Below are positions 2 to 20,000 of a stretch of DNA of 20,000 nucleotides, piece by piece. Every line of letters starts with the position of its first letter. The first letter of the stretch is position 1. Under the pieces are notes generated by a model. The model was given only the letters and a program-made list of their open reading frames with translations. It did not search any database and had not been told where the DNA came from. The position numbers and the translations under genes were made by a program. This stretch comes from Psammoneis japonica (Eukaryota), in assembly GCA_008632985.1 (NCBI GenBank), contig QPGO01000083.1, forward strand, positions 336,428 through 356,427, in the 5' to 3' direction.

Positions 2-518
2 GACATGGGGAAGCAGGCGGTTGGCATGCAGGTGGAAGCCATGGCATCCAAGGCGTTGCGATGCTTGGCTCTCGCGTACAAGGAGGAAACGGGAGTCCTT
101 GCCAAGTACAATGGTGAGCGTAATCATGAAGGTCACAAGGCTTTGAGTGACACGGCGGGATATGCCGACATTGAATCCGACTTGGTCTTTTGTGGTTTGG
201 TTGGTATGCTGGACCCGCCGAGACCCGAGATTGCTCCCATGATTGAAGTTTGTCACACGGCCAATATTCGGGTCATTATGATTACGGGTGACAACAAGCT
301 TACGGCTGAATCGATTTGCCGTATGGTGGGAATCTTTGGAGAGTCGGAATCCTTGGATGATGTTTCCTTTACAGGCGGAGAATTCTTTAGCATGCCTGAA
401 GCCAAGCAGCAAAAGATTCTATCCGGCGGTGGACTGGTGTTTTCGCGCACCGAACCCAAGCACAAGCAGCAGCTAGTGCGACTCCTGAAACGTCATGGTG
501 ATATTGTTGCAATGACGG
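2..518 (+). CDS. SERCA: P2A-type (SERCA/ECA-like) Ca2+-transporting ATPase, internal exon (gene starts upstream of the window)
   Basis: Motifs ALRCLALAYK, GMLDPPR, VIMITGDNKLTA, FSRTEPKHK, VAMTG. Donor G|GTAAGC at 518/519. Confidence 0.95.
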
Positions 519-1575
<1,057 letters not shown>

Positions 1576-2332
1576 ATGTGGATTCAACACTGTTGGGGAC
1601 CATAACTGGAAGATGATTGTGCTAGCAATTCACATGCATGTTTCTGTTGGTGTAGTTTTTAGATTGTTTTTAACCTGAGGGAGGAAATCATTTGGACGTC
1701 TGCCATTGTATTCCACGACCTGTTTGATACATTTCTAGCCTTTCTCAGTCTTCCACCAAGATTGCACTTCGTTAAGCCGCATTTTGGATATGGGTTCGAT
1801 GAAGGTTCAGAGAGATTGCCTCTTACCGTACGCCCGTAGTTGTACAGAAGGCTGCGCTCTAGCTAGTTGCGTGCTCACCACGAACCTGAACGTGCGCGAC
1901 CAACTAGCCCTACCCCGGCTAACTCACAAGTAAATATTTTTTGTTAAAATACAAACATATCAAAAAAAACGAGTGAGATAGTGAAACAAAAGATCAATAC
2001 GATTGGATTGCAACAGAGAGCGAAAATGAGTATCGAATCGTGGTGTAAATGCAAAATCCATTTTTCATCTTACAATTGGCCGTTTACCTTTCAACACAAG
2101 CAATGTATCTTCATTCTATATGACTAGTAGATAGCGTTGGTATTGTTGAAAGGATTGGAAATAGTCTAAAAAGCCGCTCCGATTCTCATGGTGTGTGGTG
2201 TTTTGAGTTTGGAGGTATGATGCGCACACGTGACTGATGAGTCCCGTCTAACATGACAGCGCGAAAGCTCAGTGCAGCAGTGATGATGTACCGGTACGAA
2301 TTTTTGTACTATGTACAACATGTGCCTGTACG

Positions 2333-2337
2333 TCTTA
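2333..2337. repeat. 5-bp target site duplication, left copy (TCTTA)
   Basis: TCTTA directly precedes the LTR at 2338 and recurs directly after the other LTR at 9607-9611. Confidence 0.95.
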
Positions 2338-2613
2338 TGATAGAAATTGAAGGCAAATGGCAAGAATTCAAACAATAACTCCTTGCTGCTGTCTAAATAG
2401 CAGATGAGTCTCCGCTCAGAGACCGTCACAGGAGCCGAAGGACGTGCAAGTCGGCATAATCGGGCTACTGTCATTATTCTTGTGAGCCTTGTGGCTCGAA
2501 AGCAAACCACATCGCGCGTGAACGCGCGGAACTAAAGCACACAAAACTGTGCACGGTAAACTAAACAGCGCGCGATGCTTCGCGCGCACCTAAATCCTGT
2601 TCAAATCCTGTCA
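2338..2613 (-). repeat. 3' LTR (276 bp)
   Basis: TGATAGAAAT...ATCCTGTCA. 265/276 identical to 9331-9606 by hand alignment, no indels. Confidence 0.97.
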
Positions 2614-2619
2614 CTCCCC
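2614..2619 (-). other. Polypurine tract (GGGGAG) abutting the 3' LTR
   Basis: Minus strand reads AAACTGGGGAG|TGACAGG, directly upstream of the 3' LTR start. Confidence 0.8.
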
Positions 2620-2948
2620 AGTTTGCTTGAGGAGCCACAGAAACAGATTCGACTTCGGATGGAATGAAGTTCCAGAACATGAGGGGGCGGAGAAGGTCCC
2701 AGATTTGGGAGTGACCCCAATGCTTGCTGAGAATGTCAGCAGGGTTGCGGGAGCCTTCGATGAAGTGGAACTCAAGGTGACCAGAGGCAATTGCCTCACG
2801 CACACGGTGGAATGACAGTGCGGTGTGTCGCTTGTGTAACTTGGAGTGCGGGATGGTGGCACTGTCTGCAACCGACTTGTTGTCACCGAACATGTGACCA
2901 ACGTTGCGGATCGGGACGCCAAGGCAGCGCAGGGTGATGCGCAGGTCG

Positions 2949-3271
2949 ACAATCTGCTCAACACAAGTCCTTGCGGCAACAAATTCAGACCCGCAGGTCG
3001 CAGTCTCCACGGTGGCTTGTTTCTCAGAGAACCAATCAGCCGGGAATTTGTTGAGGAAGTGGAGCATTCCCATGACAGAGCGTCCGGTGAGCATGCAATG
3101 GCACAAGAAAAAACAATCTGCTCAACACAAGTCCTTGCGGCAACAAATTCAGACCCGCAGGTCGCAGTCTCCACGGTGGCTTGTTTCTTAGAGAACCAAT
3201 CAGCCGGGAATTTGTTGAGGAAGTGGAGCATTCCCATGACAGAGCGTCCGGTGAGCATGCAATGGTGCAAG
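2949..3271. repeat. Tandem duplication of 159 bp (2949-3107 and 3113-3271) with an AAAAA spacer
   Basis: The copies differ at 3 positions (3025/3189, 3102-3103/3266-3267). The net +164 bp shifts the RNase H frame. Confidence 0.95.
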
Positions 3272-4587
3272 TTTGCATCGACGTAGTGGGTGGCAGTGAC
3301 GAACTTGCCAAGGGGCGGTGGAGCGTCCTTCGGGATCATCTCTTCTGCTTCACCACACACGGAATGCATCCATTCATGGGCCGGAGCAGGGAGATCCGAA
3401 TGGTCGGGCTCTTCCGTGCGAACGCGGAGAGCACCGTGTCGCATCTTGGAGAGGCACCCACAGACGCGCTTGGCACGATCCAAGTGGCCTTGACGGGGCG
3501 CAGCTCGGAAGCTAGAGAGTGACATGACGGCCGTGGCAATGTCAATTCGACCAAGGGACACTGCCCATTGGAGTGAACCAACAAGAGACTGGAACTTGTG
3601 GATGCCATCGGGTCCCAGCAGTTCGGAAGTGTCCAGTTCGGGGTGGTCACCCTTCTCTAGAGGTGACAGGGCGTTGGTGGCAGGTTTCTCCCCAAACAGT
3701 CGGGCACAGCTGTCGACCATGCGCTCGATGTACTTGCGCGGAGACAGGCACAAGGTTCCGTCGGGTTCCCGGGAAAAGTCGCAACCCAGATGGAACTCAA
3801 TGGGTCCCGCACCCTTGAGCTTGAACTTGTGCTTTTCCGTGAGGGTGTCGACGAAAGATTGAGGGTCCTTCATGGCAATGGCGAGGTCATCCACATAAAC
3901 GGCAATGCATTCACAGTGGTCGCCGTTCCTGCACATCCAAATGTGGGGTTCGGCGCGGCAGGGGAAGAAGCCTTCAGCTCGCAGGCAGTCGGCGAAGCGC
4001 TCGTGCCAGCGGAGACCGGAGCTGCGCAGTCCATGCAGTGCCTTGTGGATGACAAGGATGTGTCCTTCGAGTTTGCCGAACTCGGGTCCAGCTGCAATGT
4101 AAAGCTTCTCCTTGGTGGTGGCTTCAAGGTGGGCATTGCCAATGTCGGTGGCCCATGTCTCCAACTCGTTGAGTTCGGCCAGGAAAATCATCAGCCGAAG
4201 GCCACGGAGGGAGACTGCTCCGGAGTGGACACTGTCGACAGGCACGTCCGTGAGGTGCCCGTCGGCTACGAGTCGTGCCTTGTGGCGACCGTCGTGTTTC
4301 ACGTCGCACACCAGGTGCACTTGGATCTTCTTGTGTCCCGCAGGAGGAGTGGAAGACTTGAAGGGCCCGCAGTCATGGAAGACTTCGTACTCGTCGAGTT
4401 GGTCCATCTCGAGATTAGTTGCGTCTCCCCACTTGCGGTTGCCGTTGCGTTCGTCCAGTGACATGGCATGTTTGCAGTTCCGGGGAACTTCGTGTCCACA
4501 CTTGCAGCGAGGTGCAGTGCGGAAGGAGCGAAGCTTGGCTTGGTTGGCCATGCGAAATGGCTTCTTTTGGCGCCTCGCGATGGTGCG

Positions 4588-4797
4588 GAACCGCTTCCAG
4601 CCATCCGTGTCGAGGAGTCCGTTCTCTCGTGCATAGATGGCACAGGTGACGGGGTCGTCCTTGGCGATGATGGCAAGAGGCTCGGACGTGATCTCCCCAC
4701 TTTCCCATTCAAGCATGATGTTGTAGCTGGAGCCTTTCCAGGTTGGGTCGTGAGGCTTCAGAGGTCCTTCGTGTGACACGATGCGTCGAAATTTCCA
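4588..4797 (-). other. Chromodomain-like module at the integrase C-terminus
   Basis: WKFRRIVSHEG...SSYNIMLEWESGEITSEPL...YARENGLLDTDGWKRF fits the chromo/chromoshadow pattern. Such modules are reported for diatom CoDi copia elements. Confidence 0.65.
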
Positions 4798-7700
4798 AAC
4801 AGTGGTGTCTTCGTCTTCTTGCTCAATGTGATTCATGATGTCATTGCAGGCAAGGACTTCCTCGCATTCGTCATTGTTGACAGAGCAGACGAACTTAGTG
4901 AGCTCGGGATTGCCGTTCACTTTCCATTCGTGGTCTTCGACGGCCTTGACGATGCGAGCTCTGTGGCGTTGTCCGTCCTCTTGTGGCTGCATGAGGAAGG
5001 CACGTCCAATGATGTCTTGCGGATCGAAAACTGGCATCTTGGGTGTCCTGATCTCCCCATCAGGAGAGTCGACGGGGTTGTCGTCATGGCGAGATTTGAT
5101 GATGGGTTCAGGTGGCTCCCCATCAGGAGGATCAAGACGCAGGTTTCGGACGGCAGGATCGGGGGTGGCGGAGCGGACGTTGGACCGGCAGAGGATCTTC
5201 TGATTCTCATCAGATAGAATCTTGAAGGTCATCTGGTGGCCGACGTGCTCAGCAATGCCAACGAAGCGTCCACGCAACTCACGGGATTCGGACGGCCAAT
5301 CGGAGTCATCGAGGTGGAAGCACACGGGTTCCCACCAGTGAAAGCGAAGCAATGGGCTGATGTCCGGGGTGGAGCCAGTGAGAGTCTCAAGGGGCATGTG
5401 CCAGTGGAGACGTGGGGACGCTGCATGGTTGAGCATGAAGCACACGCACATGAGCGCCAGCAGCCATGCATGGGCGGGCGAACCAAAACGATCCATGACA
5501 GTGTTCGCCATGCGCTTCACGGTCTGGTGTCGACGCTCGGCAAAGTTTTGGTGTTGCTGGTGAGGCTCACTTTGCCAGCTAGAGATGAAGAGGGCGCGCA
5601 GGATCCCGAGCACTTTGTTGCTGATCTCAACTTGAGCACGGTCGCTAATGAGTTTGGATGGGGCACCACGTTCACGGATCTGATCCTCGAGTGTGTTGAC
5701 AAACTCTTTGTCCGTCTCAGTGCCGCAGACGTCAGTGACGGTAGACTCGGTGCCAACAAACAGTTGGGCGCTGGTGCAACCAGAGTCGACGGCCGGGGTG
5801 TCGGCACAAACGGTGTCAGTGGCGACAGGCTCGTTGCGGCGGTGCACATTAAGGGCGGGGTTGGGTGATTTGTGGGCCTTGCGAAGGTGTGCACCGGCGG
5901 GCATGCGGGCGCACTGCGTGGTGCAGTCAAAAGTACGACGGACCGCATCGGCAGGTGGGAAGCCAAAGCAAGGCCGAAGAGACTCGAAGGGGGGGTCCTT
6001 GGGCTGTACAGTGCGCTCCGGAGGTGGAACATCATCGCCCTGGGGGCCAATCGCATGCAGATGACACTCGTAGAACACGTCGTCGTTCGGAATGAGGTGA
6101 TCATCGAGGGCGGACGCGTGATCGGCAGACAAGGAAGCGGACATGATGGTCTCGTTGACAACGACACGATGACGGCAGTTGCCGCATTCGTCAAATAGGT
6201 TGGCAGTGGGATCGTCCTGCAGGTCAGAGATCGCGTCGCACCACTGGTCGTCGTCAGTGACAGAGTGATCGAGGACGGAAGGGTCCCATGTGTCATCACC
6301 GGTGAGGATGACATGGGGCAGGGTGTCCCATTCGGCGTCAGTGCAAGGTCGCATGGCAACACAAGGCAGGCCAGCCTTGATGTCAATGGGGATGACACAG
6401 CCATCAGGAGTGGCAACACGTTGCAAGCCGTTGGGCACCTTGACAGAGCGATCGTTGACATCCTGTTTGTGCCATTCGAGCTGGCCGCAGGAATGGATGG
6501 TCTTGCCCTTGCCCGTGCATGCGCACTGATGGAGTGTGGCGATGACGGGACCACGCTGGGTCTCAATGACGGCACCAGCGGTGACAATGGGGATGTCCAC
6601 CAATTGATGATCGTCAATGCCCTGAACGTCGACTTGGCGAGAGGTGCGTGCAATGACGCGAACGTCGTCGCCAGCAATGCCGCCGTTGGCCCCACGATCG
6701 ACTAGAGCGCCAGTGCGTGTGGAGCGATGAGCAGAAGCAGAGTGAATGACATTGTGGTTGTTGACGCGGCGGCAAGTGCGACCGTCAAGTTCCATGTCAT
6801 CTGCAGAAGCTGGTGGGGTAGAGGAAGCGGCGGATGGCCCCGGTCGACTGGCATTGGGGGCTTGGTTAGGAGACAACAGACGTTGCAGATCACCGGGTGG
6901 CAGTGGCTTGCACTTGGTGAGGTGCGCCAGGATGGGATCATCCGAAGTGGCGTCCACATGTGGAGCGGAGTCACCAGAGTCAGCAGGAGTCGTGTTGGAC
7001 AAGTTGACATCACCGTCACTCCCAAGGCGTTGGTCATGAAGGTTGGCCGTAACAGACTCATGGCAGTTGCTGGCTCGCGGGTTGCAGGGAGGTGGACGAG
7101 AATGCTCAAGGATGATCGCCTTGGAGGAATCGGGCAACGAATCCCAGAGCCGTTGGTGGTCGGGAGGGAGACGTCTCCATTGGACACCGGCGAGGCTGGG
7201 ACCGCGGGTGCAGGCAGCATTGGCTTGAAGGACGTCAACGTTGCTGTCAATGTCGTAGAACACATCGTCGGACGGTTCCTCGGAGTGGACGTCGTGTGCG
7301 TGTGTGGCGCATCGGGGAGCTCGAGGTGTCGTCTTGGGTTGAAATGTGCTGTCGCACTGAGCTGCGGCGGAGAGGAGCAAGCCACAGTGTTGATCGCATG
7401 TGAGGCTCTTGCCACTCTGTGTACGATGCTGATCAGCTTGGTTCTTGACAGCACGGAGTTCCTCGACAGGGTGCACGGCATTCTCGAGCATGACGCGCTT
7501 CTGTCCTTCAGAGAAGTGGTCACTGGCCGGGATGAGTGCCTCGCACTTGCGCAACTGATCTTGCCAATGAAGGATGAACCCGTGGGTCAGACCTTTCCAA
7601 GTGCCATCACCAAGACACGCGGTGGTGAGGCACGTGAGCAGGGTGGAGGACTCGACAGATGCGCGGGTGGAGGCAAGCGCGTGCTCAGACAAGGAGCGGC

Positions 7701-8464
7701 AGACGGTCTGTGCGTCAGAAGACCCCACATTTTCGCGAATGAGAGCCTTGCCCTTGTCGGTGAGAAGGATGCGTTCGAAGACGGCGAACATGCACTTTTG
7801 CTGTTCAGCAAAGAGCAGTTTGTCTTCGGGGCTGGTCGGTTTGTACGACGAGTCTAGAATGCACTTGACGTCTTGGGCACGGGCTTGTGCCACAAGTGAG
7901 GTGTGCCAAGTGTGCCACTGCTTGTCAGATTTGAGAGCCGTGAAAGTGGGATCACGCTTGATGCCTCGCTTGAAGTCCCGCACCGGGTCGCGTGCCTTGG
8001 TCGAGTTGGTGACATGTGGAGGTGCAAGGGGTGAGCTGCCGATGGACACAGAAGACATGTGGTCGGGGCTGAGGCGGCAGGCAAGGAACTCGTCATGCGT
8101 GAACAAAGAGGAGTCGTTGGCAACGTCAAGACCTTTGTGTGCTTTGACAATGTACAGACTGACTGGTGCTGCTAACATGTTCTCATAACCACGGGGCAAA
8201 GGGATTGCATTGGCGCCGTTGTCGCACTCAAGCGAGTCGATTTGGGACGGCATGAATGTGAACAGTTCCTGATGCGAGTCTGTGCCGTCTTGGGCCAAAG
8301 CCAAACGAAGAGGACTCCCAGCACCTTGGGCAAGCACGGTTCCAACCACGTGCTCGAAACCATCGGTTTGTTGCTGACGAGTGAGAACCATGGTGGACAA
8401 AGGTGGTGTCAGGACAATCAATTCTGGTTGGGAAGCGAAGGTAGACTCGAAACTTGGGTGAGAG

Positions 8465-8496
8465 TGGACTTGACTTGAAATGGACTTGACTTGAAA
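8465..8496. repeat. 2 x 16-bp tandem repeat TGGACTTGACTTGAAA in the retrotransposon 5' leader
   Basis: Exact copies at 8465-8480 and 8481-8496, followed by a further CTTGAA unit. Confidence 0.85.
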
Positions 8497-9315
8497 TCTT
8501 GAACTGTCTTAAAATCAGAAGTCGCCGGGCTTTGTTGTCCCGTTCGTTGTCAAGTGCTAAACTTCCCATCCGGTCCGTAGAGTTGTGCCGGCACGTCCGA
8601 ACCCGCAGCTGGTGGCGCTTTGGGTTGCTTGCGAGTGGAGCAGCGGGTTGCAAACCCCTGCAGGCAAGCTGACTGGAGGTGGACAAGACCCCCGAACCGT
8701 TCTCATTTTGTGTCGGTTGGATTTCCCGATCAGGCTGGCCAGTTGACGCAGGCGTTGGGCGCTGTGGACGAACGAACAAACGCGGGAAAGCACCCTCGCC
8801 CCAACGCAGGCTGCAATCACGGCCACCTGCTCTCACAGTCGTCCTCGTGGACCTGGCAGAACTGTAGAGCACCAGCAGTCCGGGGCAGATCAGGTGCAAT
8901 GGACTCGGTGTGCTTGTAGAGTGGCAGCAAAACCGCAGTCCGAAGAGTGGACAAAGGTTCTTGGCCGTGAAGACATGTACACACACACATGTCTTCAGCG
9001 ACTAAGATCCTTGAACATGTGGGGTTCTTGACCGTTAACCGAGGAACAGGTATATCAAGGGATGTTGATCAAGGATAGACTTGGATATGACCGTTGAATG
9101 TAAGTCTTCAGCGATCAAAGGTAGTGCAATCAATCCAGATGTCCAGCGGCAAGGAGACTTGACGGTGACGTTAACTTCCTGCCGATGCCCTGGTGTTGAA
9201 TGCGCGTAGACTTGCCGATGTATGTAGAACACATACGGAGGTCCACGTAGAATTGAAATAGCGTCGTTGGTAAATCAACGACGACGATGGCGGTTGCTCA
9301 ATGGGTTGACAATGA

Positions 9316-9330
9316 GCAAGACTGTTAATC
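9316..9330 (-). other. Putative primer binding site complementary to a tRNA-Asn(GTT) anticodon arm
   Basis: Directly after the 5' LTR the element reads GATTAACAGTCTTGC, with no TGG. Its complement GCAAGA-CT-GTT-AA-TC has the form of a tRNA-Asn anticodon stem-loop. Confidence 0.6.
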
Positions 9331-9606
9331 TGATAGAAATTGAAGGCAAATGGCAAGAATTCAAACAACAACTCCTTACTGCTGTCTAAATGGCAGATGA
9401 GTCTCCGCTCAGAGACCGTTGCAGGAGCCGAAGGACGTGTAAGTCGGTGTGATCGGGCTACTGTCATCATTCTTGTGAGCCTTGTGGCTCGAAAGCAAAC
9501 TACATCGCGCGTGAACGCGCGGAACTAAAGCACACAAAACTGTGCACGGTAAACTAAACAGCGCGCGATGCTTCGCGCGCACCTAAATCCTGTTCAAATC
9601 CTGTCA
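9331..9606 (-). repeat. 5' LTR (276 bp)
   Basis: Direct repeat of 2338-2613 with TG..CA ends. Confidence 0.97.
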
Positions 9607-9611
9607 TCTTA
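9607..9611. repeat. 5-bp target site duplication, right copy (TCTTA)
   Basis: Matches 2333-2337. Confidence 0.95.
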
Positions 9612-12600
9612 CGTGCTCTGGTGGCACTTTGACAGCGACTCCCTCCAACACTGACGTGCTGAGTTTCTCACAAAAAAACACACACAAGCAACCATGAGCA
9701 GCCCTGTGAATGCTGCAAGCAGCTTGGTGTCTCCCATGTGGTGTGGCTGGGCTTGTCCATTCTTCGAAGCACAGCAGCTGTGTTTGCCATGTGACAAGCA
9801 TCCGGTCGGTTGCTGTTTCGACTTTAAACTGTGGTGTCTGACAGGCATTGTTCTTGAACAGTGAATTAAACAGCTGTCAAATTGTCCCTGTCACCCTTTG
9901 TGGGCACTGGGGAATGTGGGTCTGCTGCTGTGGGGTCGGTCCTGATCAACTTTTCTGCCGCACTCAACCGGTGCACTGGAAATGTGGGTCAGCTGGCGCC
10001 GGCACAGCCAACAACAGCTCAGTGGAACTTAAAACACAGATTTGGTTTTTCTTTAATTGACAATCTGTGCACATTGTCAGGAGTTGTGTGTGTCCACCCC
10101 ACTGAGAAACTGTCATCGAACAGGTTGATGGGCATGCAAAGATGACCGGCAGACACTTCAACAGTGTCGCCCCATTGCTTCAGCTTGACCTTGCTCTGTT
10201 GTTGACATGGATTTGTTTTCTTGTGCAGAGCTTTCATCCTGCCATCATCCATGGGCAGTCAACACATGAGATCAATGGAAAACACAGAGAACGTCCCTGC
10301 CAAGCAGAGATTCGCTGGTGTGGTGCTGCAGATGATGGTTTGGCAGTGAGCGCAACAGGTTTGTGGAGCTGTTGGAACAAGCAAGAGCCAGAAAAGTTGT
10401 AGGTTGATGTTGGTGAGATGGTGCTTCATGAAGACTGGCCTCAGAAACTCCAAGAGGAGCACAACAAATGCGCTGGAAATGCCAGCCAGCTGTGCAACAA
10501 CCCCCAGCTGTGTCCCCAGAGAGTGCACTTGACTGTTTTCAGTCAGCCCGGCTTTTCCATTGCATCGTTCTGAGATGCTTGAATGTGGAGCTTGAACCGC
10601 TGGGTTGTCCTCAGAAAAATGCTTCTGATCCAGCATTCGTTGATGGCTTGCATTGTTGCCATGTGTTTCATGATGAGGTCCAAGACCCAAGTTGACATTT
10701 CTCAATGCTTCCTTGTGGCACATCTCTGAGCTTCCTCTTCCACATTCAGAGCTCAATGGAGCTGCATTTCTGAAACTCCCTGAGTTGCACCATGCCAGCA
10801 CTGCTGAGTTCCTGCAATCCAGCAACATTTGTCCATCGCAGCAGGCTTGGGAATGTTTCTCTCTTCACCCCAATGATGGTGCTGGATGCAGAGCACACAG
10901 CAGTGGTGTGCGCATTGGCTGAAACCAGCAGTGCATGAAGCACAACAGCTTTCAATCACTCCTCCCACAATGCGTCCAAGATTGTGCCCATCTTTTGCAG
11001 AGGTGGTTGGCTGAGTCGTTTTTTTCTGCCAAACATCTTTTTTTTTTGCTGGTGGCCTTGCTGCTGAGAATGGTGGGCAGATGATGCACAAAGCGGCAGC
11101 CACGCTAACTCAACAAGCACGACTTAGTTTCAGCACTGCAAATTCGCCGTTAAAATGCCGTGGCTGGAAACTGCAGAAACCAACACACCATGGCGACTCT
11201 ACGGTCGCTGTTTCCTCAACGGCATCACCTTCAAGAGCCACAACAAAGAACAACATTTCACATCTCGTGAACTTGTGTGTGGCAGAATTGACACATGCAA
11301 GTGCAATGGGCTCATTGTTGACTCATGCAGTCAAAAAACGATGGGAAAAAAATTGAACATTTTTCAGCTGTTTTCACTGCGATCAATCAACATCAAAGCA
11401 CAGCAAGGCACACACATGTGAAATGAATTGCACGACATTGATGTGTGTCAGTGTTGTGGTGAGTTCATGGCTGTTGATGGAGTGCATTGCATTCGCGGTC
11501 GCCATTGTCGTTGCGTTTCAACAAGTCGTGGAAAATTTGAAATCCAGAACATTTGTGTGTGCAGGCATGTTGTCACTTGTGGGATTTAAACATTGGACAT
11601 TGCTCTGTGCACAGAGCATTTGCATTTTTCACTTGTTGCAATCTCATGTGTGCACAAGGTGTTGGCATTGATTGCCCAATGTGACACACATCAATGTCCA
11701 AATGTAAACATCAGACTTGCCGCCAGCAAAAAAAAAGGTGGGGGTGGTTGTTGGCTTGACTTGCAACACCATAAAAACAAGGCACCGATGGAGTTCTTTT
11801 CACTCCCCTTTCTCCACCCTCTCTTTCTGATTCTTGTTCATTGTTGCCAATTGTTTGAATGGCATGCAAAGTTTTGTCTTGTCATCTGAGAATGCAATCG
11901 CGTGAAGCTTCAATTTTTCAGTCCAGAGCCCATTGGAGGGCCCTCCCGATGGTCTTCTGGCACTTGCTTTCACCAATGTAGCCATGGCACTTGTGAACAA
12001 AAGAATCAGCAAGTTCAGGGCTTTCAATTGCAATGACTTCAAACTTGGCAAGAAACTTCCCCTGGAGCAAAGGTCACAGCACATTTTCAGCTCGCATTTC
12101 ACAACTTCTCGTGCTCTCTTTTCTCTGAAAGAAATCCACAGTCATGAGATTCTCAAGTGGTTCGTGAATTTTCACTCGCGGGTCTCCAGCATCAATGGCA
12201 AAGAAGGAACCAGATGTTCCTTTGTCCCGGTTGAAACCTTGGACGAGATGAGGTGCCTCTGCCTCAAGAGAGACAAAGCCTTTTGAAGGGCTCCAGTCCT
12301 GGGTGGGACTCTGTGTGCGGTGTGTGACATTTGGCATTTGGCGGGCCCACAGAATTCTGCGTGCGAGCTCCGCAACAAATTTGTCAAGCAATGAAAATGT
12401 AAATGATGACAGAAACATCCTTGCCACAACCGCCCCGCTCAAATCTGAATCTCTGTCATGCCAGTCTCTAGCTAGAGCAGAAGTGCTGTGGCATGTGCAA
12501 TGCATGTGCGTTGTCAAACAGCTGCAATGGCCACCGCGACTGTCAACATTCTCAAGCAGCAGGGGAAGAAAGTGAAGTTTGGCAAAGTCGATGATGACGA

Positions 12601-14720
12601 CATTGATTTTGGGTGCAAAGAGAAGAAATCGCGGCGGCGTTGGAATGTCATCAAAGATGAAAAGGTGAGTCAACAGACTGATTGTAGATTGTCGACAAAG
12701 TGCAGTGTTGTTCATCCTCTTGACTCGCCTGGTTTTGTTTTCTTTTTCTTTTTTTTTTCCGTCGTTGCCTTGTCTGCGCTGCACCAGGAGAAGAAAAAGA
12801 AGATGAGTCACGGTGCGCACACTGTCAACTCTGCTGACGCTCCTTCCACCGCTCTTTGGATTTTTCGTTTTTGCAGCTCCTTTGTGTTTCTCTTGAATGC
12901 TTTTTCTCATCTGTTTTTTTTTTTCCCACAAACAGAGCAACACGTTCTCTGTGTGCAGCTTGATGATCCGGCGAATGCCAACGTGCTTTCACAGTGGTCC
13001 AATCTTAGCGTTTTTGAAACAATTGCAAATCTTTTTTTCCGAGAAGCTGGTGTCCCCAATGCGAGTGCCAACAGTTTGCAAGGCAACCTTGATTCGTTGC
13101 GCACTGTCCCATTTGGAAGCTTGAGTGCAAATGCTCTCAAACATTTGCAAGTTTTGATGGACATTGTGAAGAGGAGGGCCGGCTGGTCCACAGCGAAACT
13201 TGTGATGCCAACCAATTCTCCGAACAATCGTCCCAAACCTGGCGGTTGTGGCAGAGCCGGCAGCAGTGGCGGACTCGGAAGCAAGGCTTGCATTGTTGGG
13301 GAACAACAAAAGAAATGTGCAGTTGTTGAATTTGTCGCCAAGGAAAATCCTTTTGAGCGGAAATCACTTTTCTGCAACAACAGCTGTGCTCACTTCTGTC
13401 ATTGGGGGGAGATTCGTTGCCATGGTGGAGATGAGTTGTGGGGTTGGCAGTGCGAGAAGATGACATGATGCTGCACTGCACATCTCTCTCCCCCATGTTG
13501 AACACGGCAATTGTTGCACAATTTGTATGAAGTGTCCAAGCTAGATGCAAGAAAATGGGGTAGACAACGCAAAGACAATTGACAGCATGCAGTGGCAGAC
13601 AATGGTGAGCTCAAAACAAATGACACAAGTTCAAGCAGTTGCAGTTGCCTGAATGTCTGGGGAAATCGGACTCCAAAATGCAACTACAAAGGAGATTGGT
13701 GATGCAAACAATCTGCCGAGCATTGTCCTGGACTTTCTTTCTGCTTTCATTGAAAAAGAAAAGAAAAATGCAAAAGATTTGTCTGCTTTGAATGGGATTC
13801 ACCGTTTTGGTGGGAATCAAGATTTGGCTCATTCTTTTTGGATGGTCTGCTGTGAGATCATCAACATCTAAGAGATGGACAGACAAGTTTGCGCTGCACT
13901 TTTTGTTGCTGCAGCTGCGGGTTTGACATTGAGATGAGGTTTGTGAGATGACAGCCATTGCCACAACTGCTGAAACAATCAGCACGAACCTGCTTGGTGC
14001 AAATGACAAACATTGGAGAACTGGCAGAGGCAGTCTCTTTTTTTTTTCAGTTGGCAAGAACATGCTTGGACCGGCTGTGTGTGGGGTGGAATGCTCTTGC
14101 ATGGTCACCATGCAAAAGTGAATGACGTTCCTTGCCATGCAGTTGGCTCAAGAGTGAATTTCAAACATTGCAGTGGGTGTGGTTGCAGAGCAAGACCATG
14201 AATGTCCATGAGCAAGAAACCACCACAAACACATGTGACAGCTCTTTCTGCATGACAAAACATTCAAAAAGTTGCCCTGCTCCAGCTGCATTTTCATGCA
14301 AAGCAAGATTGTGCTTCAACAATGTGCCCAAAGCAATGGGAGCCGAGCGTGGGATTTTGGTGGGTGCCTTGGCCAGCTGAGTCGGCACTGTGCCAAAGCG
14401 TGTGTGCAATGCCACACCTTTTCACTGTGCTTTGCTTTCAGAAAAGTGGGGCACCAGCAGAAGAAACAAGCCATGGCATTGAGCTGAGTGTAGAAATGAA
14501 GATGCGTTGGCTCAAGCTGCGAGCTGGATGTTCTTTGGGGGGTTCCCCCGCTCCCCCGCCCCTGTTGGTTTTCGCTCTTGAGCCTCTTCAGATGCTCCTC
14601 TATCCTTGCATTCTGTGGCACAAAAGGTTCATCACCAAGTGAGTCAAAACAGCAGTTTATGACTGCAAACAGCGGATTTTTGGCCACTGAGTTGGCAACC
14701 AATTGGTGAAAAAGGGTTTC
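9612..14720. other. Degenerate block depleted of both TpA and CpG, probably relics of repeats or pseudogenes of unknown family
   Basis: No TA seen between 10402 and 11105; about 9 CG in 10441-11040; strong TG/CA excess; Cys/His-rich ORFs in all frames; no recognisable domain. Confidence 0.75.
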
Positions 14721-14928
14721 CGACCGCGACCCAAAAGATCAGGATGTGGCCACGGTCAGACGGGAGGATCACACGAGGCGCACACGCACGAGAACACTTC
14801 GACACGGCACCTTCGATCTTTCGGATCGCCCATTGTCTTTATCTTGAGTCCAAACTGTTATTGCTCCACTGTCCTTGGCGCTAATGAGCCTAATTTCAGG
14901 CTACCAGATGAAGGAAAATCTTTATCGC

Positions 14929-15849
14929 ATGTTGAAGTACCGGAGTGCTCTTTTTCTTTTTGCATTCCTCCTGTTCACAGCGACTTCCTCGTCGCCGTTT
15001 CCTGCTGGTGTTTTTCGCAACCTCGCTCGAGGATCGGCACTAAAATGCATGGGAGATTTATGCGGGGGCTTACCTTTTGAGGTTTGGAAATCATCGGTAG
15101 TCATGGAGCATATTCGTGCCAGCGATGTGGGAAGAAAGGCCCAGGGAGATTTGGCCGTGTTGAGACAATTGCTTCAAGAACGAGGTCCAAGAGCCCTGTG
15201 GTCGGGATGTTCGGCAAGAATGGTGGAGGGCTTCTTTAGTGGCGCAGTACTGCTTGCGGGGAAGGAAACGATTCGGAAAACGCTTTGCGCGTCTCCGGTT
15301 ATTACAAGCCGGGTGTCGCCTGCGCTGATTGGTTTTGTGGCTGGTGCCGGCGGAGGCGCAGCTCAAGCAATAGTCATGGCCCCTTGCTCACTACTAGTCA
15401 CAGCCACAACGGCTAATGGTGGCTCTGTACTAGAAGCAGCAAAAGACGTTTGGTCTCGTCACGGATTGCGGGGTATCTACCGTGGGTCTCCAGCCGTGGC
15501 TGCTCGACAAGCTACAAATTGGGCGTCTCGTCAAGGCTTCACAGAGATGGTGCGTCCCCGAATTGGTGTTGCTGGAATTGGCGGTGAGATTCTTGCGGGA
15601 TGTCTTGGAGGGACATTGTCTTCATGGAATACGCCCTTTGAGATTGCAAGGATAGAGACACAGTCACGCACGTTTGCCAATCACAAAAACAGTCAAGACA
15701 AGCACCACATGAATCTGTTTCAATCGATGCAGTACGTGGCGAAGGAACGAGGAGTTGGAGAACTATACACTGGGCTATTTCCGAGGATATGTCAATCCTG
15801 CTACCAGACTGTGTTTCTAGTTTGCATTCCTCGTATTTTGGATTCATGA
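14929..15849 (+). CDS. Mitochondrial carrier family (SLC25) protein, Yhm2 citrate/oxoglutarate carrier-like, with a hydrophobic N-terminal extension
   Basis: Three-repeat layout with PFEVWK and PFEIAR signatures. GIYRG...RQATNWASRQGF and WNTPFEIARIETQS resemble yeast Yhm2. Alternative in-frame ATGs at 14884 and 14908. Confidence 0.85.
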   Translation: MLKYRSALFLFAFLLFTATSSSPFPAGVFRNLARGSALKCMGDLCGGLPFEVWKSSVVMEHIRASDVGRKAQGDLAVLRQLLQERGPRALWSGCSARMVEGFFSGAVLLAGKETIRKTLCASPVITSRVSPALIGFVAGAGGGAAQAIVMAPCSLLVTATTANGGSVLEAAKDVWSRHGLRGIYRGSPAVAARQATNWASRQGFTEMVRPRIGVAGIGGEILAGCLGGTLSSWNTPFEIARIETQSRTFANHKNSQDKHHMNLFQSMQYVAKERGVGELYTGLFPRICQSCYQTVFLVCIPRILDS

Positions 15850-16048
15850 GGTGAACATCTCGACATGATTAGACCAGAGACCACCTCGTGACAGCAATGT
15901 CGGTGTTTTCTTTTGAGAAACCTCACATCCTTGAATTTCTATTTCCGTTTTTATTTATGCAGGTTTCTCTAGTCTTTCTCTTTTTCTCCTCATCTTTCTG
16001 CAAGCGAGAAGTGTGGCGTCGTTTTGCTTGGTTTCGGCGGATTTTGGT

Positions 16049-16175
16049 TTTCCCGCCGTTGTGCTTTCGCGCGCATTCGCGCGACGGCCTTGCCGTCGAA
16101 CGTGACGTAGGATCAGTACTCACTACGACGTAAGTAGAACCTACGACATGTCTCAGTACATTCGAAAATTCAAAA
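16049..16175 (+). promoter_or_regulatory. Candidate E2F sites (TTTCCCGC 16049-16056, TTTCGCGC 16065-16072) and CHR-like motifs (TTCGAA, TTCAAA at ~16161-16174)
   Basis: Exact matches to TTTSSCGC about 240-260 bp upstream of the ATG at 16308. Function is inferred from the consensus only. Confidence 0.35.
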
Positions 16176-16307
16176 ATCCCGCGGCGGCGGCGGCGGAAGC
16201 TCATTTCGCTCGCTCCATCGAAACACTCTCGACGTTGATGACTCTGCCGTCGCTGCCGTTGCATATCAAACGACGCCTTCCTATATCGACTCAGCAAGTG
16301 ATTGATA

Positions 16308-17174
16308 ATGTCGGGCTTTGCTAGGAACTCGCTATTATTTCACGGAGGCTTCGGCGGAAAGCGAAAGAAGAATCGGAACGACGGGTCATCGCGGAAGAAT
16401 CGTGGTGTTGGTGGCGGAAGCAACAAATCTGCAAATCCGATTCAAACGCCTCTTCGATCGAATGTAGTGCATACCTTCAACGGCAATGTCCACCCGGACG
16501 ATACGGCAAACGGAAAGCAACTCCTCGCGTCAGAGACGGACGCAACCAGGCATGTACAGTCGGTCCCGCCTCCCCCGTACACTCACGTACAAAACCCACG
16601 CATGACGTCACATCATGAGCCCGACTTTGACAATGGCTGCCTGTCACAGCTCACCATGTCGCAATTCAGCAACGGATCCCAAGATTATTCATCCCGATCG
16701 TCCTCGTCGCAGCCGAGTGGGTCGTACCAGCATAATATCCATTCCGTGAGTTCCAACTGCAGCACCGCCGCGGAAAGTCAAGGCTCGTATCCAAACAACC
16801 ATTTTGCTACGAACCGATCACCTCCTCCTACCAACGGTGTGGGGAACTCTTGGAGCAAGCCACGGAGCAGCGGTGGCTCGGTCGGAGGACAGTCTCGAGT
16901 GTTTCCTGGACAAGGTTTGAATCCGAGCCAAAATAGCGTCGGTCCACCAAGTCGCTGGAATTTTGCACAAGCGAGCCGCAGTCTCCAACCAGCTGCTACT
17001 CCGGCACGACGATCCATTCATAGCATCGCTGCGACGCCACGAGTATGGATGAAGAATCTGCTCAAGCCGCCCTTTCGTGTCTCGCTGCGTTCCCACGAAG
17101 CGAGCCAAACGGACGCGCCAAGAGTCGTCGACAAGACTCCTCCGACTGAGGCTCGTGATGATGAAGCCACAAAG
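16308..17174 (+). CDS. Uncharacterised protein, exon 1 (disordered, Ser/Pro/Gln-rich, SQ cluster)
   Basis: Long ORF with normal dinucleotide composition. Donor AAG|GTATGT at 17174/17175, phase 0. Confidence 0.7.
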
Positions 17175-17278
17175 GTATGTCTTCGTATAAGCTGTCGCTG
17201 TCCAAGCAAATACTCGTCGTCATATCTGAAGTGAATAACCATTGAGTCTACTTTCTTCTCTCACTTGTGAACAAGCAG
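17175..17278 (+). other. Spliceosomal intron (104 nt, or 101 nt with the upstream AAG acceptor)
   Basis: GTATGT...CTTTCTTCTCTCAC...AAGCAG. Either AG keeps the two flanking ORFs in frame. Confidence 0.7.
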
Positions 17279-18892
17279 ACCAGCCACCGCTCCACGACGT
17301 CATGTGCCGACGAAGAAGCCTCCAAGCCCCCCAAGGCCAAATCAAGCGCAATCTCTCCAGGTAGCATTACCCAAACTCGGTTCGAGACGCACGATTTAGC
17401 TTCTCGTGAAGCGAAGGTGAAGGAGGAACGGGAGGCCTTGGAGAAACTGTCCTCTTCGGTTGCTGGCCAGATGGAACGATTCCAAGCGTTGGCCAAGGAG
17501 ACGGAATCACAATTGGAGCAGCAACGAGCGACTGAAGAGAACATGAAGCAGCAGCAAGCGGCTCTCGAGGCACTGTCATCATCTGTCGCGACGCAGATCG
17601 AGAAGCTAGAAGAGCTCAAGAATGCGACGAATACGAAACCAGCAGAGATCCAAGAGCTTGCGGACAAGGTGACGGAATCGAAACTGGCCATTCTCCAGGA
17701 AAGTGCAGATGCCGCCGTTGCCCGAATCAACAAGGTCGAAGAAGAAGCGCGCGCCAATATTACCGAAAGGCAGCTTTGTCGGACCGACTTGAACCTCACT
17801 TCACCCCAGTTGCACATGCTACAGGCGATTTTGCCGGCGATTCGAAACGCAGCTTCTCACGCCGCGACTGAGCTTGCACAGAAAGAGGCGCAGAATGCAA
17901 TTAACGATATCGAGAAACTCGCAATCACTCCTTACGAGCGGCATACCAAGGACGGAGACCCAAAGGTCCGCAATCAGAAAACACTTGCTGCTCAGGACTC
18001 GCCTACCAAAACAACACTCGTCTTGGAGCTCACCGATTCACCAGCACAGCCAAAGGCTCGTCGAAGCTTTTCAACTATAAAGGTTCGGGTCAAGTCAACG
18101 CCAGCGCAGCCTACCAAAGACACACCAGAGCCGGCTAGTGATGATGAAGACCACGCCTTGACTGCAGTCGTACCGGACCCCGTGGGCTCTTCGTTTATCC
18201 CTCAATTCTTGAGGGCAGCCGGTGCTTTAGTAGTGGAAAAAGTCTCCGGGATTTCCCCTCCTCGAACTAGATCTGGCAAGAGGCGACTTGAACCCAGTCG
18301 CCCGGTCACGCGGAGAAGCAAGCGAAAGAAGCTCAATTCAGGTGATAAGGCCGAGTCGGAGGACGGAATCACGACAGCTCCAACGGAAATGGCTGCAGAG
18401 AAAGATAACGCGACGCCAATCACTCGAGATGAGGTTCTATTGGATTCTCCAAGTGAGAAGCCTGCTCTCCCTTTGGCGTTGGTTCAGAAAACGACCAAGA
18501 AAGCCACTACCAAGCCCCACAAGGGAGCCCGACGTGGCAAGCGCTCGAAGACAAGTCAGCCCCGGGCAGTGCTCAAGCCACTAAACATTTGCATCACCCC
18601 TCCAAGACGCACGCAAACATCAGAGTCTTTATCTGCCAAGGACGACGGGCGGGATGTTCCAGATGAAGATTGGGGCTGTGGTCCCAGTCGCTCGCTGTTT
18701 TCGTCTCCCGTCGTAGATCTCTCTGCTGCCAAGAAGCCCGACAAGGTGAACCGAATCCCCGCCTCGTCAACAGCGCGCTTCAAATTATCTATGAAGTCTT
18801 CTCGAAAGAGAAAGAAGAGTCGTACGGACAAGAAGAATCGCGGAAGCATGACCGCCATTGGAAGGGATTATGTGGATTTCAGCTTCATGTAG
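17279..18892 (+). CDS. Uncharacterised protein, exon 2 (coiled coil, then a disordered basic tail with NLS-like stretches)
   Basis: About 538-codon ORF. E/Q/K/A/L heptad-rich segment at ~17390-17920; RRSKRKK and RKRKKSR; ends RDYVDFSFM*. Confidence 0.75.
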   Translation, partial: TSHRSTTSCADEEASKPPKAKSSAISPGSITQTRFETHDLASREAKVKEEREALEKLSSSVAGQMERFQALAKETESQLEQQRATEENMKQQQAALEALSSSVATQIEKLEELKNATNTKPAEIQELADKVTESKLAILQESADAAVARINKVEEEARANITERQLCRTDLNLTSPQLHMLQAILPAIRNAASHAATELAQKEAQNAINDIEKLAITPYERHTKDGDPKVRNQKTLAAQDSPTKTTLVLELTDSPAQPKARRSFSTIKVRVKSTPAQPTKDTPEPASDDEDHALTAVVPDPVGSSFIPQFLRAAGALVVEKVSGISPPRTRSGKRRLEPSRPVTRRSKRKKLNSGDKAESEDGITTAPTEMAAEKDNATPITRDEVLLDSPSEKPALPLALVQKTTKKATTKPHKGARRGKRSKTSQPRAVLKPLNICITPPRRTQTSESLSAKDDGRDVPDEDWGCGPSRSLFSSPVVDLSAAKKPDKVNRIPASSTARFKLSMKSSRKRKKSRTDKKNRGSMTAIGRDYVDFSFM

Positions 18893-19601
18893 ATGTCGCC
18901 GGACCAAACGCATCTGGTGTTTCATGGCTATTACGCAGCCATGCATTTACTGTGAGAATCAGTCATATGTGGAGAGTAGTCCTATAACGTAGAGATCTCG
19001 TTGTACACGGAGTGATCTAGATTGTAAAATAGGATCCAAAACTACCTGGGTAACATACTGCTGTACTTAGTGCCGGGACATGACACCACACTATGGCATG
19101 TCCTCGGAAGAAAGACATGAGTTGGAGTTGGAAGCTATGACCCGAAAACGTCGGTCTTGGGAACGTGCGGAGACGAAATTATGAGTTTGTGCCTCGAGTA
19201 TGAAGATGACGGTACGAGCGCAGAAACAAAACTACATAATGGAAATGATTCTGCAAGCTCAAGGATATGAAAGCGATGGCAAGAGGGGGAAATCATTGGA
19301 TCAGTTCTTTACTTCCACGAGAGGACAGTGGCAGTCCACTATGAGCAGCTTCGAAAGAGATTGATGCAGGAAAATGATGGAAAAGAATCAGAACGAGAGC
19401 GATGATGAAAAGAAGAATACAGTGGGGATTGATAAATGCTTCTTAAACTTTTGTTGTTTTGGTTTGAATCTACACATTTCCCTTGCGGCACAACTTCAGC
19501 GAAAGATGATCAATAATGAATTGGTAAATTACTTAGGTATGGTACGTTCCTATTCATGTTATATGCCTTCTACTGTGTATCTTCTCGCGTCCTTTCTATT
19601 T

Positions 19602-20000
19602 TCACTTTTTCCTTGGCTTTTCTCGAAGGCGCATGCCCGCTTTATGCCATGCATCGTCAATGTGCATAACGTAATAGACACCTTCAACATTCGGTGCCTT
19701 GGCAAGGAACCGCCCTCCATATCCATGAACCTTTTCCACAAGTTTGCGACTGCAAGCTTCCTTTTTCTTTTTGTCCTTGTGCGGAATTGCCTGGTACTCT
19801 TCCCTGAATTGTGCCACCACTGATTGAAGGGTCTTATTGCCTGTATGGTTGATGACAGCTCCGCCTCGCCCCGGAAGGACATCAAGCTCGCCAACGTCTT
19901 TCTCCTCAACAAACGTGCGGACAGAATTTTTTTTCGTACTAATGTTCTTTGTTGGAACGTTCCTGGAAGACTTGTGAGGGATCTTCTCGGTCCTTTTTAC
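19602..20000 (-). CDS. DUF6824-domain protein, 3' part (5' end beyond the window)
   Basis: The frame is open from 20000: ELDVLPGRGGAVINHTGNKTLQSVVAQFREEY...SRKLVEKVHGYGGRFL...AWHKAGMRLRE. This fits the diatom-expanded DVLxGRG..N.H.GN...GGRFL pattern. Confidence 0.8.
   Translation of the reverse strand, partial: VKRTEKIPHKSSRNVPTKNISTKKNSVRTFVEEKDVGELDVLPGRGGAVINHTGNKTLQSVVAQFREEYQAIPHKDKKKKEACSRKLVEKVHGYGGRFLAKAPNVEGVYYVMHIDDAWHKAGMRLREKPRKK

Follow-up and report, generated by a model that had tools for sequence, protein, structure and literature searches.

A TpA-directed hypermutation signature in transposon-derived DNA of the diatom Psammoneis japonica

Introduction

Point hypermutation directed at transposons is a known kind of process. 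To our knowledge, the known systems attack cytosine, as in repeat-induced point mutation (RIP) and editing by APOBEC enzymes, or act on RNA, as ADAR does. Here, we describe a stretch of 20,000 nucleotides from Psammoneis japonica (assembly GCA_008632985.1, contig QPGO01000083.1, positions 336,428 to 356,427 of the forward strand; referred to as "the window"). It contains a Copia-type long terminal repeat (LTR) retrotransposon, termed E1, and an adjoining non-coding block, E2, in which the dinucleotide TpA (TA in all counts below) is nearly absent and TpG and CpA are in excess. An earlier note on this DNA, made from the sequence alone, had proposed a repeat-targeted conversion of TpA to TpG and CpA, and its claims are taken up below together with the results that bear on them.

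Among the closest described systems, RIP in ascomycetes and the RIP-like TCG hypermutation in basidiomycetes cause context-specific transitions in transposons and repeats, have sharp edges, spare genes, and act on integrated DNA on both strands, all of which has a counterpart, observed or proposed, at the locus described here. The decay of 5-methylcytosine (5mC) at CpG also turns a palindromic dinucleotide into TG or CA on either strand, mostly in silenced transposons, and E2 shows both this decay and the loss of TpA. ADAR, a metazoan enzyme, edits one RNA strand per molecule with a mild neighbour preference. ADAR hyperediting and the A-to-G hypermutation of retroviruses resemble our observations in that A is changed to G within a retroelement and that T or U is favoured 5' of the A. 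APOBEC3 enzymes leave LTR-proximal regions less edited. Passages of Knisbacher and Levanon (2016, PMC4866542) describe APOBEC3 editing of retroviral and LTR-retrotransposon complementary DNA (cDNA), which is likewise a host-inflicted and context-specific hypermutation fossilised in integrated LTR elements. The same T-A context as at our locus is given in passages of PMC11156358 for A-to-I mRNA editing by ADAT2/ADAT3 (Tad2/Tad3) in filamentous fungi, with which we group bacterial TadA.

Extent of TpA depletion

Across positions 2338–14720 of the window, the observed/expected (o/e) ratio of TA was 0.15, compared to 0.61 in the left flank (1–2337) and 0.52 in the right flank (14721–20000). The corresponding ratios of TG and CA were 1.45 and 1.57, in agreement with the matching TG/CA excess stated in the earlier note, whose hand counts of TA were exact on recount (22 in 601–1200, 3 in 6001–6600, and 0 in 10402–11105). 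A sliding profile revealed that the depletion was not uniform and formed two separate blocks, which are the interior of E1 and the whole of E2. The features of both are as follows.

2333–2337, no strand assigned: target-site duplication TCTTA, left copy; the same five bases occur at 9607–9611
2338–2613, minus strand: 3' LTR of E1, 276 nt, with TG...CA ends; direct repeat with 9331–9606, 96% identical
2614–8865, minus strand: TA-depleted interior of E1 (polyprotein coding region and ~470 nt of non-coding leader); 38 TA in 6251 nt
2611–8508, minus strand: open frame of 1965 codons (P0001), a hypermutated Copia-type gag-protease-integrase-reverse transcriptase-RNase H polyprotein, identified by the Pfam family RVT_2 and tblastn
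2949–3271, minus strand: 164-nt tandem duplication within E1; the tblastn alignment switches segment at 3106–3112
8866–9330, minus strand: 5' part of the E1 leader adjoining the 5' LTR, with ordinary TA as seen from the TA positions
9331–9606, minus strand: 5' LTR of E1, direct repeat with the 3' LTR
9607–9611, no strand assigned: target-site duplication TCTTA, right copy, matching 2333–2337
9612–14720, no strand assigned: E2, non-coding block poor in TA and CpG according to the sliding profile; TG and CA o/e 1.3–2.4

In the E1 block (2614–8865), TA o/e was 0.13 at a CpG o/e of 0.89 and a GC content of 0.57 (0.55–0.61 along the sliding profile). In the E2 block (9612–14720), TA o/e was 0.03–0.13 per 500 nt at a GC content of 0.43–0.52 and a CpG o/e of 0.2–0.9, and 26 TA remained in 9750–14700. 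The segment between the blocks (8866–9611) had an ordinary TA density (30 TA in 8865–9606), as did the 3' LTR with its 11 TA. TA is somewhat scarce throughout the window, with o/e ratios of 0.5–0.6 in the host genes. These data support a TpA hypermutation in the window that is real and directional, and also support a loss of TA that is confined, with sharp edges, to transposon or non-genic DNA. The earlier view that the process is restricted to such DNA thus agrees with the sharp-edged blocks and with the ordinary host genes.

Structure of E1

E1 (2338–9606, minus strand) is a complete Ty1/Copia LTR retrotransposon of the diatom CoDi-like type, as judged from its LTR pair, the target-site duplication, and a collinear polyprotein that bears an RVT_2 domain. 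The LTRs are in direct orientation with the ends TGATAG...CTGTCA and are flanked by the 5-bp duplication TCTTA. RVT_2 was found at residues 1389–1600 of P0001 (E = 7.5e-24), and P0001 is collinear with full-length relatives of 1845–1933 amino acids, sharing 56–57% identity over ~1750 residues (tblastn). An integrase-like segment without a Pfam match was read from the translation at about residues 940–1000, upstream of the reverse transcriptase. The start codon lies near 8394, with residue 1 of the relative P0002 aligning at 8391, and hence the TA-poor block takes in ~470 nt of non-coding leader, whereas neither the other 465 nt of the leader nor the LTRs are TA-poor. The period of the 164-nt duplication is not divisible by three and shifts the frame near the 3' end of P0001.

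E1 is inserted exactly at the left edge of E2 (2333–2337/9607–9611). Prior to the insertion, a TA-rich stretch (22 TA in 2031–2337) was directly followed by a TA-poor one (no TA between 9610 and 9825). The position of E1 may be due to chance, or integration may favour the borders of silenced DNA.

Direction of the changes

The changes were polarised by comparison with related polyproteins. A search with residues 850–1800 of P0001 yielded 1382 relatives, of which the best 120 were considered, all but one of them being 58–70% identical. Tyr makes up 0.66% of P0001, whereas these 120 relatives contain 3.84% on average (minimum 2.86%, maximum 4.52%). Conversely, P0001 is rich in Cys (3.51% versus a mean of 0.96% and a maximum of 1.61%) and in His (4.68% versus a mean of 3.49% and a maximum of 4.62%). 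An alignment of P0001 with 47 relatives (those longer than 1600 amino acids among P0002–P0061) contained 49 conserved Tyr columns, defined by Tyr in at least 70% of the sequences. In these columns P0001 has Tyr 8 times, Cys 23 times, His 10 times and Phe 5 times, and Trp, Pro and Leu once each. Ten of the columns that lost Tyr are invariant (100% Tyr) in the relatives, while the Tyr of YVDD survives. All other conserved residue types were kept in P0001 at 67–100% of their columns.

For each of 904 conserved columns we then inferred the nearest ancestral codon and, with 58 multi-nucleotide and 12 ambiguous changes set aside, obtained 102 polarised single-nucleotide changes. The most frequent classes were A>G (37 changes, preceded by T in 33 cases and by A in one) and T>C (15 changes, 14 of which are followed by A). 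Each of the ten other classes comprised one to eight changes, including G>A (6, of which 5 after C) and C>T (3, all before G). Outside the TpA context, changes from A:T to G:C were few, with four A>G not after T, one T>C not before A, seven A>C and two T>G, as against six G>T and six C>A. The replacements I>V, T>A, N>D, K>E and M>V represent first-position A>G changes behind a codon ending in T, and the TpA context therefore spans codon boundaries.

At the nucleotide level, E1 was compared with the matched coding DNA of the best 80 of 193 confirmed metagenomic matches, which represent 79 loci. Their TA o/e averaged 0.72 (minimum 0.29) and their GC content 0.48 (maximum 0.54), compared to 0.13 and 0.57 in the E1 interior. 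In the Tyr columns, all 79 loci have at most one Cys and at most two His, compared with 22 Cys and 10 His among 44 columns in the window. Judged by these homologous sequences, the TA loss goes beyond chance or a habit of the family. The proposed direction, TA to TG and TA to CA, is thus borne out with outgroup proteins as the reference. The earlier note had named relatives equally poor in TpA with Cys or His at the same positions, or a polarised spectrum of CA/TG to TA, as outcomes contrary to its proposal; instead, the relatives keep Tyr and a TA o/e of at least 0.29, and the spectrum runs from TA to TG/CA.

Among the metagenomic loci, L046 (match 3–2539) has a TA o/e of 0.29 and a GC content of 0.53 and keeps 21 of 26 conserved Tyr, with no Cys and two His; low TA without Tyr loss thus occurs within the clade. 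Three further loci (L004, L022 and L038) have a CpG o/e of 0.21–0.24, TG of 1.57–1.70 and TA of 0.45–0.48 without the Tyr-to-Cys/His signature, a pattern that reflects the usual decay of CpG in methylated copies carried by other hosts.

Sequence context and strand symmetry

As the baseline for sequence context we used 29 long relatives, picked by hand from the 79 loci, which contain 47.8 TA per kb compared to 6.1 in E1. By this measure, the E1 interior has lost ~87% of the TA expected from its relatives. The numbers of surviving over expected sites were 0/75 for ATAN and 5/93 for its reverse complement NTAT, 20/86 for CTAN and 9/42 for NTAG, 8/73.5 for GTAN and 18/109.5 for NTAC, and 10/64.5 for TTAN and 6/54.5 for NTAA. 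Hence there is a preference for the flanking bases, with A-T-A and T-A-T nearly always hit and C-T-A and T-A-G most resistant, and survival is nearly equal for reverse-complementary contexts, which amounts to an approximate strand symmetry. The surviving TA sites of E2 show the same avoidance of ATA or TAT (4 of 26 versus roughly 45% in the flanks), and for this reason one and the same process appears to have shaped the E1 interior and E2.

We also looked for strand-coordinated clustering of Cys- and His-type hits. By a hand count, the 33 ordered sites formed 12 runs compared to 14.9 expected (z about −1.2), which is not significant.

Other copies and read-level support

Read-level evidence came from four runs (X1–X4) of one sample in one study, which is possibly the assembly's own source, with no library type on record. 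Contigs were placed on the window at a likeness of at least 80%, and the summed depth given here is no copy number. In X1, 15,384 contigs were placed, and the summed depth over E1 was 70,000–120,000 compared to ~56 in unique flanks. Probably, few repeats of this genome are more abundant than the E1 family. The three other runs are tiny and, within the window, assemble almost only the E1 family (2002–10005).

Variant places in X1 comprised 837 transitions (A>G 211, T>C 218, C>T 212, G>A 196) and 229 transversions, and 40 of 1080 variant places were compared site by site. Among these listed places, the window has TG where most other depth has TA at 2779, 2868, 2896, 2906, 4094 and 9126, and at 2779, 2868 and 2896 TA accounts for 85–100% of the depth of other copies. 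At 3377/3378, 3401/3402 and 3830/3831 the window has TG and 45–68% of the other depth CA, and at 2899/2900 and 2925/2926 the window has CA and other copies TG. In the conserved Tyr column 1703 (3400–3402), the window encodes His and 60% of the other depth Cys. Different copies have thus been hit independently at the same TA sites. Window-private changes of CG to CA or TG in E1 were few among the listed places (2813 and 3933). The contigs agreed closely with the window, with no differences in 601 nt (13064–13664) and three in 1918 nt (1–1918), although this run may be the source of the assembly; a lack of read support for the substituted bases, which the earlier note had considered, was accordingly not observed.

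Timing of the changes

Between the two LTRs of E1, 11 nucleotide differences fall into nine dinucleotide sites, seven of which are TA versus TG or CA and two CA versus TG. The 276 nt contain no further difference, and each of the 20 CpGs is present in both copies. In sense orientation, the private hits are four A>G and one T>C in the 3' LTR, and two A>G and four T>C in the 5' LTR. Since no CpG decayed, each of the two CA/TG pairs is best explained by an ancestral TA that was hit independently in either LTR; accordingly, each LTR would have had ~16 TA sites at insertion, of which five and six have since been hit. Consistently, all three differences between the copies of the tandem duplication (2949–3271) are of the types CA/TA and CA/TG. 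By the usual LTR clock the pair is 4% diverged, yet it carries no change off TA-derived sites, and the change in E1 is therefore hypermutation and not slow decay. Because all LTR differences are TA-derived and both types of hits occur in each LTR, the data support that at least part of the process acted after the LTR duplication and on both strands. The earlier claim of an action after insertion holds for this part, whereas most of the loss in the interior would have been inherited.

At 2576/2577, both LTRs of the window have TG and about half of the other depth has CA; with such a shared hit, the LTRs are not immune. The LTRs lean to opposite strands (4 CA to 1 TG in the left and 4 TG to 2 CA in the right one), in numbers too small to test.

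Composition and copies of E2

In E2, the CpG o/e was 0.2–0.5 over much of the block. No Pfam family exceeded the cut-off in its 32 open reading frames (6 + 26), which gave three chance-level sub-threshold matches (E = 0.016–0.83). There was no tblastn match to three Copia relatives, and no LTR-like or terminal repeats, no tandem array and no Rfam family were found in the block. At a likeness of at least 80%, the left 3 kb are moderately repeated and the right 2 kb nearly single-copy: the summed contig depth was 287–5922 in 10006–12673 and 60–82 in 12674–14674. The latter segment may be an ancient remnant with copies now too divergent for the 80% threshold.

Within 12007–12673, the summed depth of a short piece (5922) exceeds that of its surroundings ~100-fold, and many contigs stop at 12343 and 12407. 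The piece probably represents a fragment of a different repeat of high copy number, nested within E2. Two contigs with a depth of 38 each cover 13064–13664. One equals the window, and the other, with 63 differences and two gaps in 600 nt, could be a divergent haplotype or a second copy.

Possible mechanisms

On balance, we consider it probable that a TpA-specific transition process, TA to TG/CA, acts on both strands of integrated DNA in transposon-derived or silenced regions and spares the adjacent genes. We favour integrated DNA because the private LTR hits are of mixed strand type, the sequence context is strand-symmetric, and the signature extends to E2, which has no retroelement features. 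In this process, A:T would be replaced by G:C at the first or the second base of the palindrome TpA, mainly in integrated double-stranded DNA, with hits building up over time. Mutated copies would still be copied in trans, which stays possible because this type of mutation never makes an in-frame stop. The interior would then combine hits inherited from parent copies with its own hits over several copying cycles, while the LTR and leader, needed in cis, would be kept less mutated by selection for transposability.

Two chemistries may be considered as best guesses. In the first, a TadA/ADAT-like deaminase would convert adenine to hypoxanthine at TpA. According to passages of PMC11156358, ADAT-family editing requires a U at position −1 of the edited A, and passages of PMC11087585 and PMC10962958 have ADAT-type enzymes act at UpA. 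The T expected 5' of the target A for such a deamination was present in 33 of 37 A>G changes, and 14 of 15 T>C changes precede an A. A Pfam scan of 40 open reading frames of the window found no deaminase domain, in line with the earlier statement that the responsible enzyme is not encoded there. In the second chemistry, a modification set symmetrically on TpA in silenced chromatin would decay mutagenically, as a mirror image of 5mC decay. A TpA-preferring hydroxylation of thymine exists in dinoflagellates and kinetoplastids, and we know of no TpA-specific base modification in diatoms. Repair errors of the polymerase eta type (WA to WG), another option of the earlier note, fit poorly: they would hit both TA and AA, whereas 33 of 37 A>G changes follow T and only one follows A.

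The proposals of the earlier note that repeats as such are the target and that the process is a genome defence system are unproven. E1 is highly repeated and 10006–12673 moderately so, while 12674–14674 is nearly single-copy (depth 60–82 versus 56) and nevertheless TA-poor, and within the repeated E1 the LTRs and the 465-nt leader segment are much less depleted than the interior.

Several observations weigh against a process on integrated DNA as outlined above. The LTRs and the 465 nt of leader keep an ordinary TA density beside an interior depleted by ~87%, and the edge at the junction of the 3' LTR and the polypurine tract (2613/2614) is sharp, as would be predicted by the editing of single-stranded cDNA and not obviously by a chromatin-wide process. 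The LTRs have lost only about a third of their TA since insertion (11 hits in 16 inferred sites × 2 copies), and most of the interior loss would consequently have to be inherited. Near single-copy status of 12674–14674 is a further difficulty. Indications of strand bias contradict each other, as the Tyr codons show more sense A>G than T>C (23 versus 10) and the dinucleotide excess over the relatives is larger for CA (+16.0 per kb) than for TG (+7.9 per kb), the latter bias depending on the baseline assumed for the family. In addition, the G+C content of E1 lies 9 points above the mean of its relatives and the TA loss accounts for only about half of this surplus; since the polarised changes show no drive from A:T to G:C outside TpA, the remainder is probably family composition. 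Finally, the evidence consists of one locus and the reads of one sample.

The strongest alternative, which we regard as unlikely but deserving of serious attention, is an editing linked to retrotransposition. A deaminase that is packaged with the replication intermediate or encounters it would act on UpA in the genomic RNA (sense A>G) and on TpA in single-stranded minus-strand cDNA (sense T>C), with hits accumulating over copying cycles as by APOBEC3 or ADAR on retroviruses. The spatial profile of E1, with spared LTRs and a spared first 465 nt after the 5' LTR next to an interior that is nearly saturated up to the polypurine tract/U3 junction, fits this explanation and resembles the single-strand exposure profile of APOBEC3G on the cDNA of human immunodeficiency virus. 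The enormous amplification of the E1 family and the UpA context of ADAT-type RNA editing, as given in the passages cited above, are also in its favour, and A-to-G hypermutation has been recorded for retroviruses (Kim et al. 1996, listed among the references of PMC3185545). However, LTRs made in one event should be nearly identical with strand-specific private hits, whereas both LTRs of E1 carry private hits of both strand types. Survival by context is strand-symmetric, and Tyr is retained more toward the 3' end (7 of 26 in residues 1262–1899 versus 1 of 23 before), the reverse of what an exposure gradient with its maximum before the polypurine tract would give. The same signature is also borne by E2, a block with no retroelement features.

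CpG decay through 5mC deamination, or GC-biased gene conversion, is a very improbable source of the TG/CA excess. CpG decay is visible in the low CpG o/e of E2, in the two private CG changes in E1, and in the polarised G>A and C>T changes, which lie almost exclusively in CpG context. Neither process removes TA, however, the CpG o/e of E1 is 0.89 with 20 of 20 LTR CpGs intact, and a general drive from A:T to G:C is missing outside TpA. CpG decay is thus a minor second process that is strong only in E2. The earlier exclusion of 5mC decay as the cause stands for E1; E2 has lost CpG as well as TpA, and there CpG decay cannot explain the TA loss.

Even less credible is an artefact in which the true genome has TA and modified TA bases in heterochromatin cause systematic base-calling or assembly errors. 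The missing record of the library type and the origin of all four runs from one sample, possibly the source of the assembly, would leave room for it, but the k-mer contigs of X1 reproduce the TA-poor sequence at 13064–13664 without a difference, and the presence of TA, TG or CA at one site in different copies, together with the LTR differences, fits fixed mutations and not a systematic miscall. An avoidance of TA by the family through codon usage, RNA stability, or a nuclease or restriction-like activity, with no mutation process at all, can practically be dismissed in spite of the window-wide scarcity of TA and the low TA of L046, because 33 of 49 conserved Tyr, among them ten invariant columns, became Cys or His, TA occurs in further copies of this genome where the window has TG/CA, the LTRs differ only at TA sites, and the depletion extends to the non-coding E2 and to 470 nt of non-coding leader.

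Host genes in the flanks

Two host genes were recognised outside the TA-poor blocks.

2–1575, plus strand: C-terminal part of a P-type cation ATPase (Pfam Cation_ATPase_C, E = 2.6e-46, and Hydrolase); TA o/e 0.39–0.64
14848–15849, plus strand: mitochondrial carrier (Pfam Mito_carr) with ordinary TA

The best named relatives of the mitochondrial carrier are from diatoms (Seminavis robusta, 66%; an MMETSP transcriptome "Thalas...", 66%; Cyclotella cryptica, 54%). As a host control, it retains three of three conserved Tyr. The ATPase is read in two overlapping frames (2–598 and 589–1575, plus strand), and the frame switch near 589–598 could be a short intron or a frameshift. Further to the right, long open frames of 310 and 548 codons without a Pfam family occupy 16302–17234 and 17246–18892 (plus strand). 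The CpG o/e is unusually high at 15751–16750 (1.35–1.69), and TA o/e falls to 0.21 at 17251–17750.

Comparison with known systems

A search of the full-text literature, with subscription journals and supplements outside its scope, returned no description of a hypermutation of transposons from TpA to TpG/CpA in any organism. A term search in Maumus 2009 (PMC2806351), PMC8147415 and bioRxiv 10.1101/2025.10.24.684338 was negative for hypermutation, for deamination and for any bias in dinucleotides. The TpA specificity is thus unprecedented in the literature searched.

Compared to the described systems, the locus differs from each in a specific manner. RIP creates TpA from CpA/TpG, whereas here TpA is destroyed and A or T is attacked instead of C. 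The hallmark of RIP, an increase of TpA with a decrease of CpA/TpG, is reversed (TpA o/e 0.13–0.15, TG/CA elevated; 37 A>G and 15 T>C versus 3 C>T and 6 G>A), so that the earlier note was right in calling the direction opposite to that of fungal RIP. RIP itself depends on an enzyme of the RID/DNMT4 type and on a premeiotic stage. An enzyme resembling a cytosine methyltransferase would not explain a change of A:T to G:C. CpG decay acts on CpG, whereas in E1 CpG is untouched and TpA nearly gone. Unlike after ADAR editing, T>C (14 of 15 at TpA) occurs alongside A>G (33 of 37) on the same strand in an almost absolute context, and the LTRs differ at 11 TA-derived nucleotides, which does not correspond to an ADAR fossil. 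The editing by ADAT2/ADAT3 concerns hairpin loops in RNA and is not written into the genome, unlike the changes in E1, and an action of TadA on DNA is known to us only from engineered base editors. APOBEC3 deaminates C to U on minus-strand cDNA with strand-biased G>A changes as the outcome, whereas here A:T is changed to G:C on both strands and G>A and C>T account for only 6 and 3 of the 102 polarised changes.

The consequences for coding sequences also set the locus apart, as RIP creates many stop codons and here none arise. Under the genetic code, A>G at TpA makes TGA only from TAA, T>C makes no stop, and TAA and TAG are removed. As a result, a dead polyprotein gene is still open for 1965 codons, and many long spurious open reading frames occur in all six frames of E1 and E2. 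Hypermutated elements can therefore resemble intact genes even with 33 of 49 conserved Tyr gone, and in such genomes the annotation of genes and transposable elements, estimates of "active" element content, and LTR-based dating would be misled.

If TpA is indeed removed from integrated transposons, this would be a new mutational force and would suggest that a major group of marine algae has either a novel enzyme, perhaps a naturally occurring editor of adenine in DNA, or a novel base modification. We tentatively suggest, with somewhat more doubt than confidence, that a transposon-directed DNA editing of A:T to G:C at TpA exists in diatoms, or at least in P. japonica, carried out by a natural DNA adenine deaminase or through a decaying symmetric modification. 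Such a process would inactivate elements through the loss of Tyr codons, TATA boxes and AATAAA signals while reading frames stay open, and would be the mirror image of both RIP and CpG decay.

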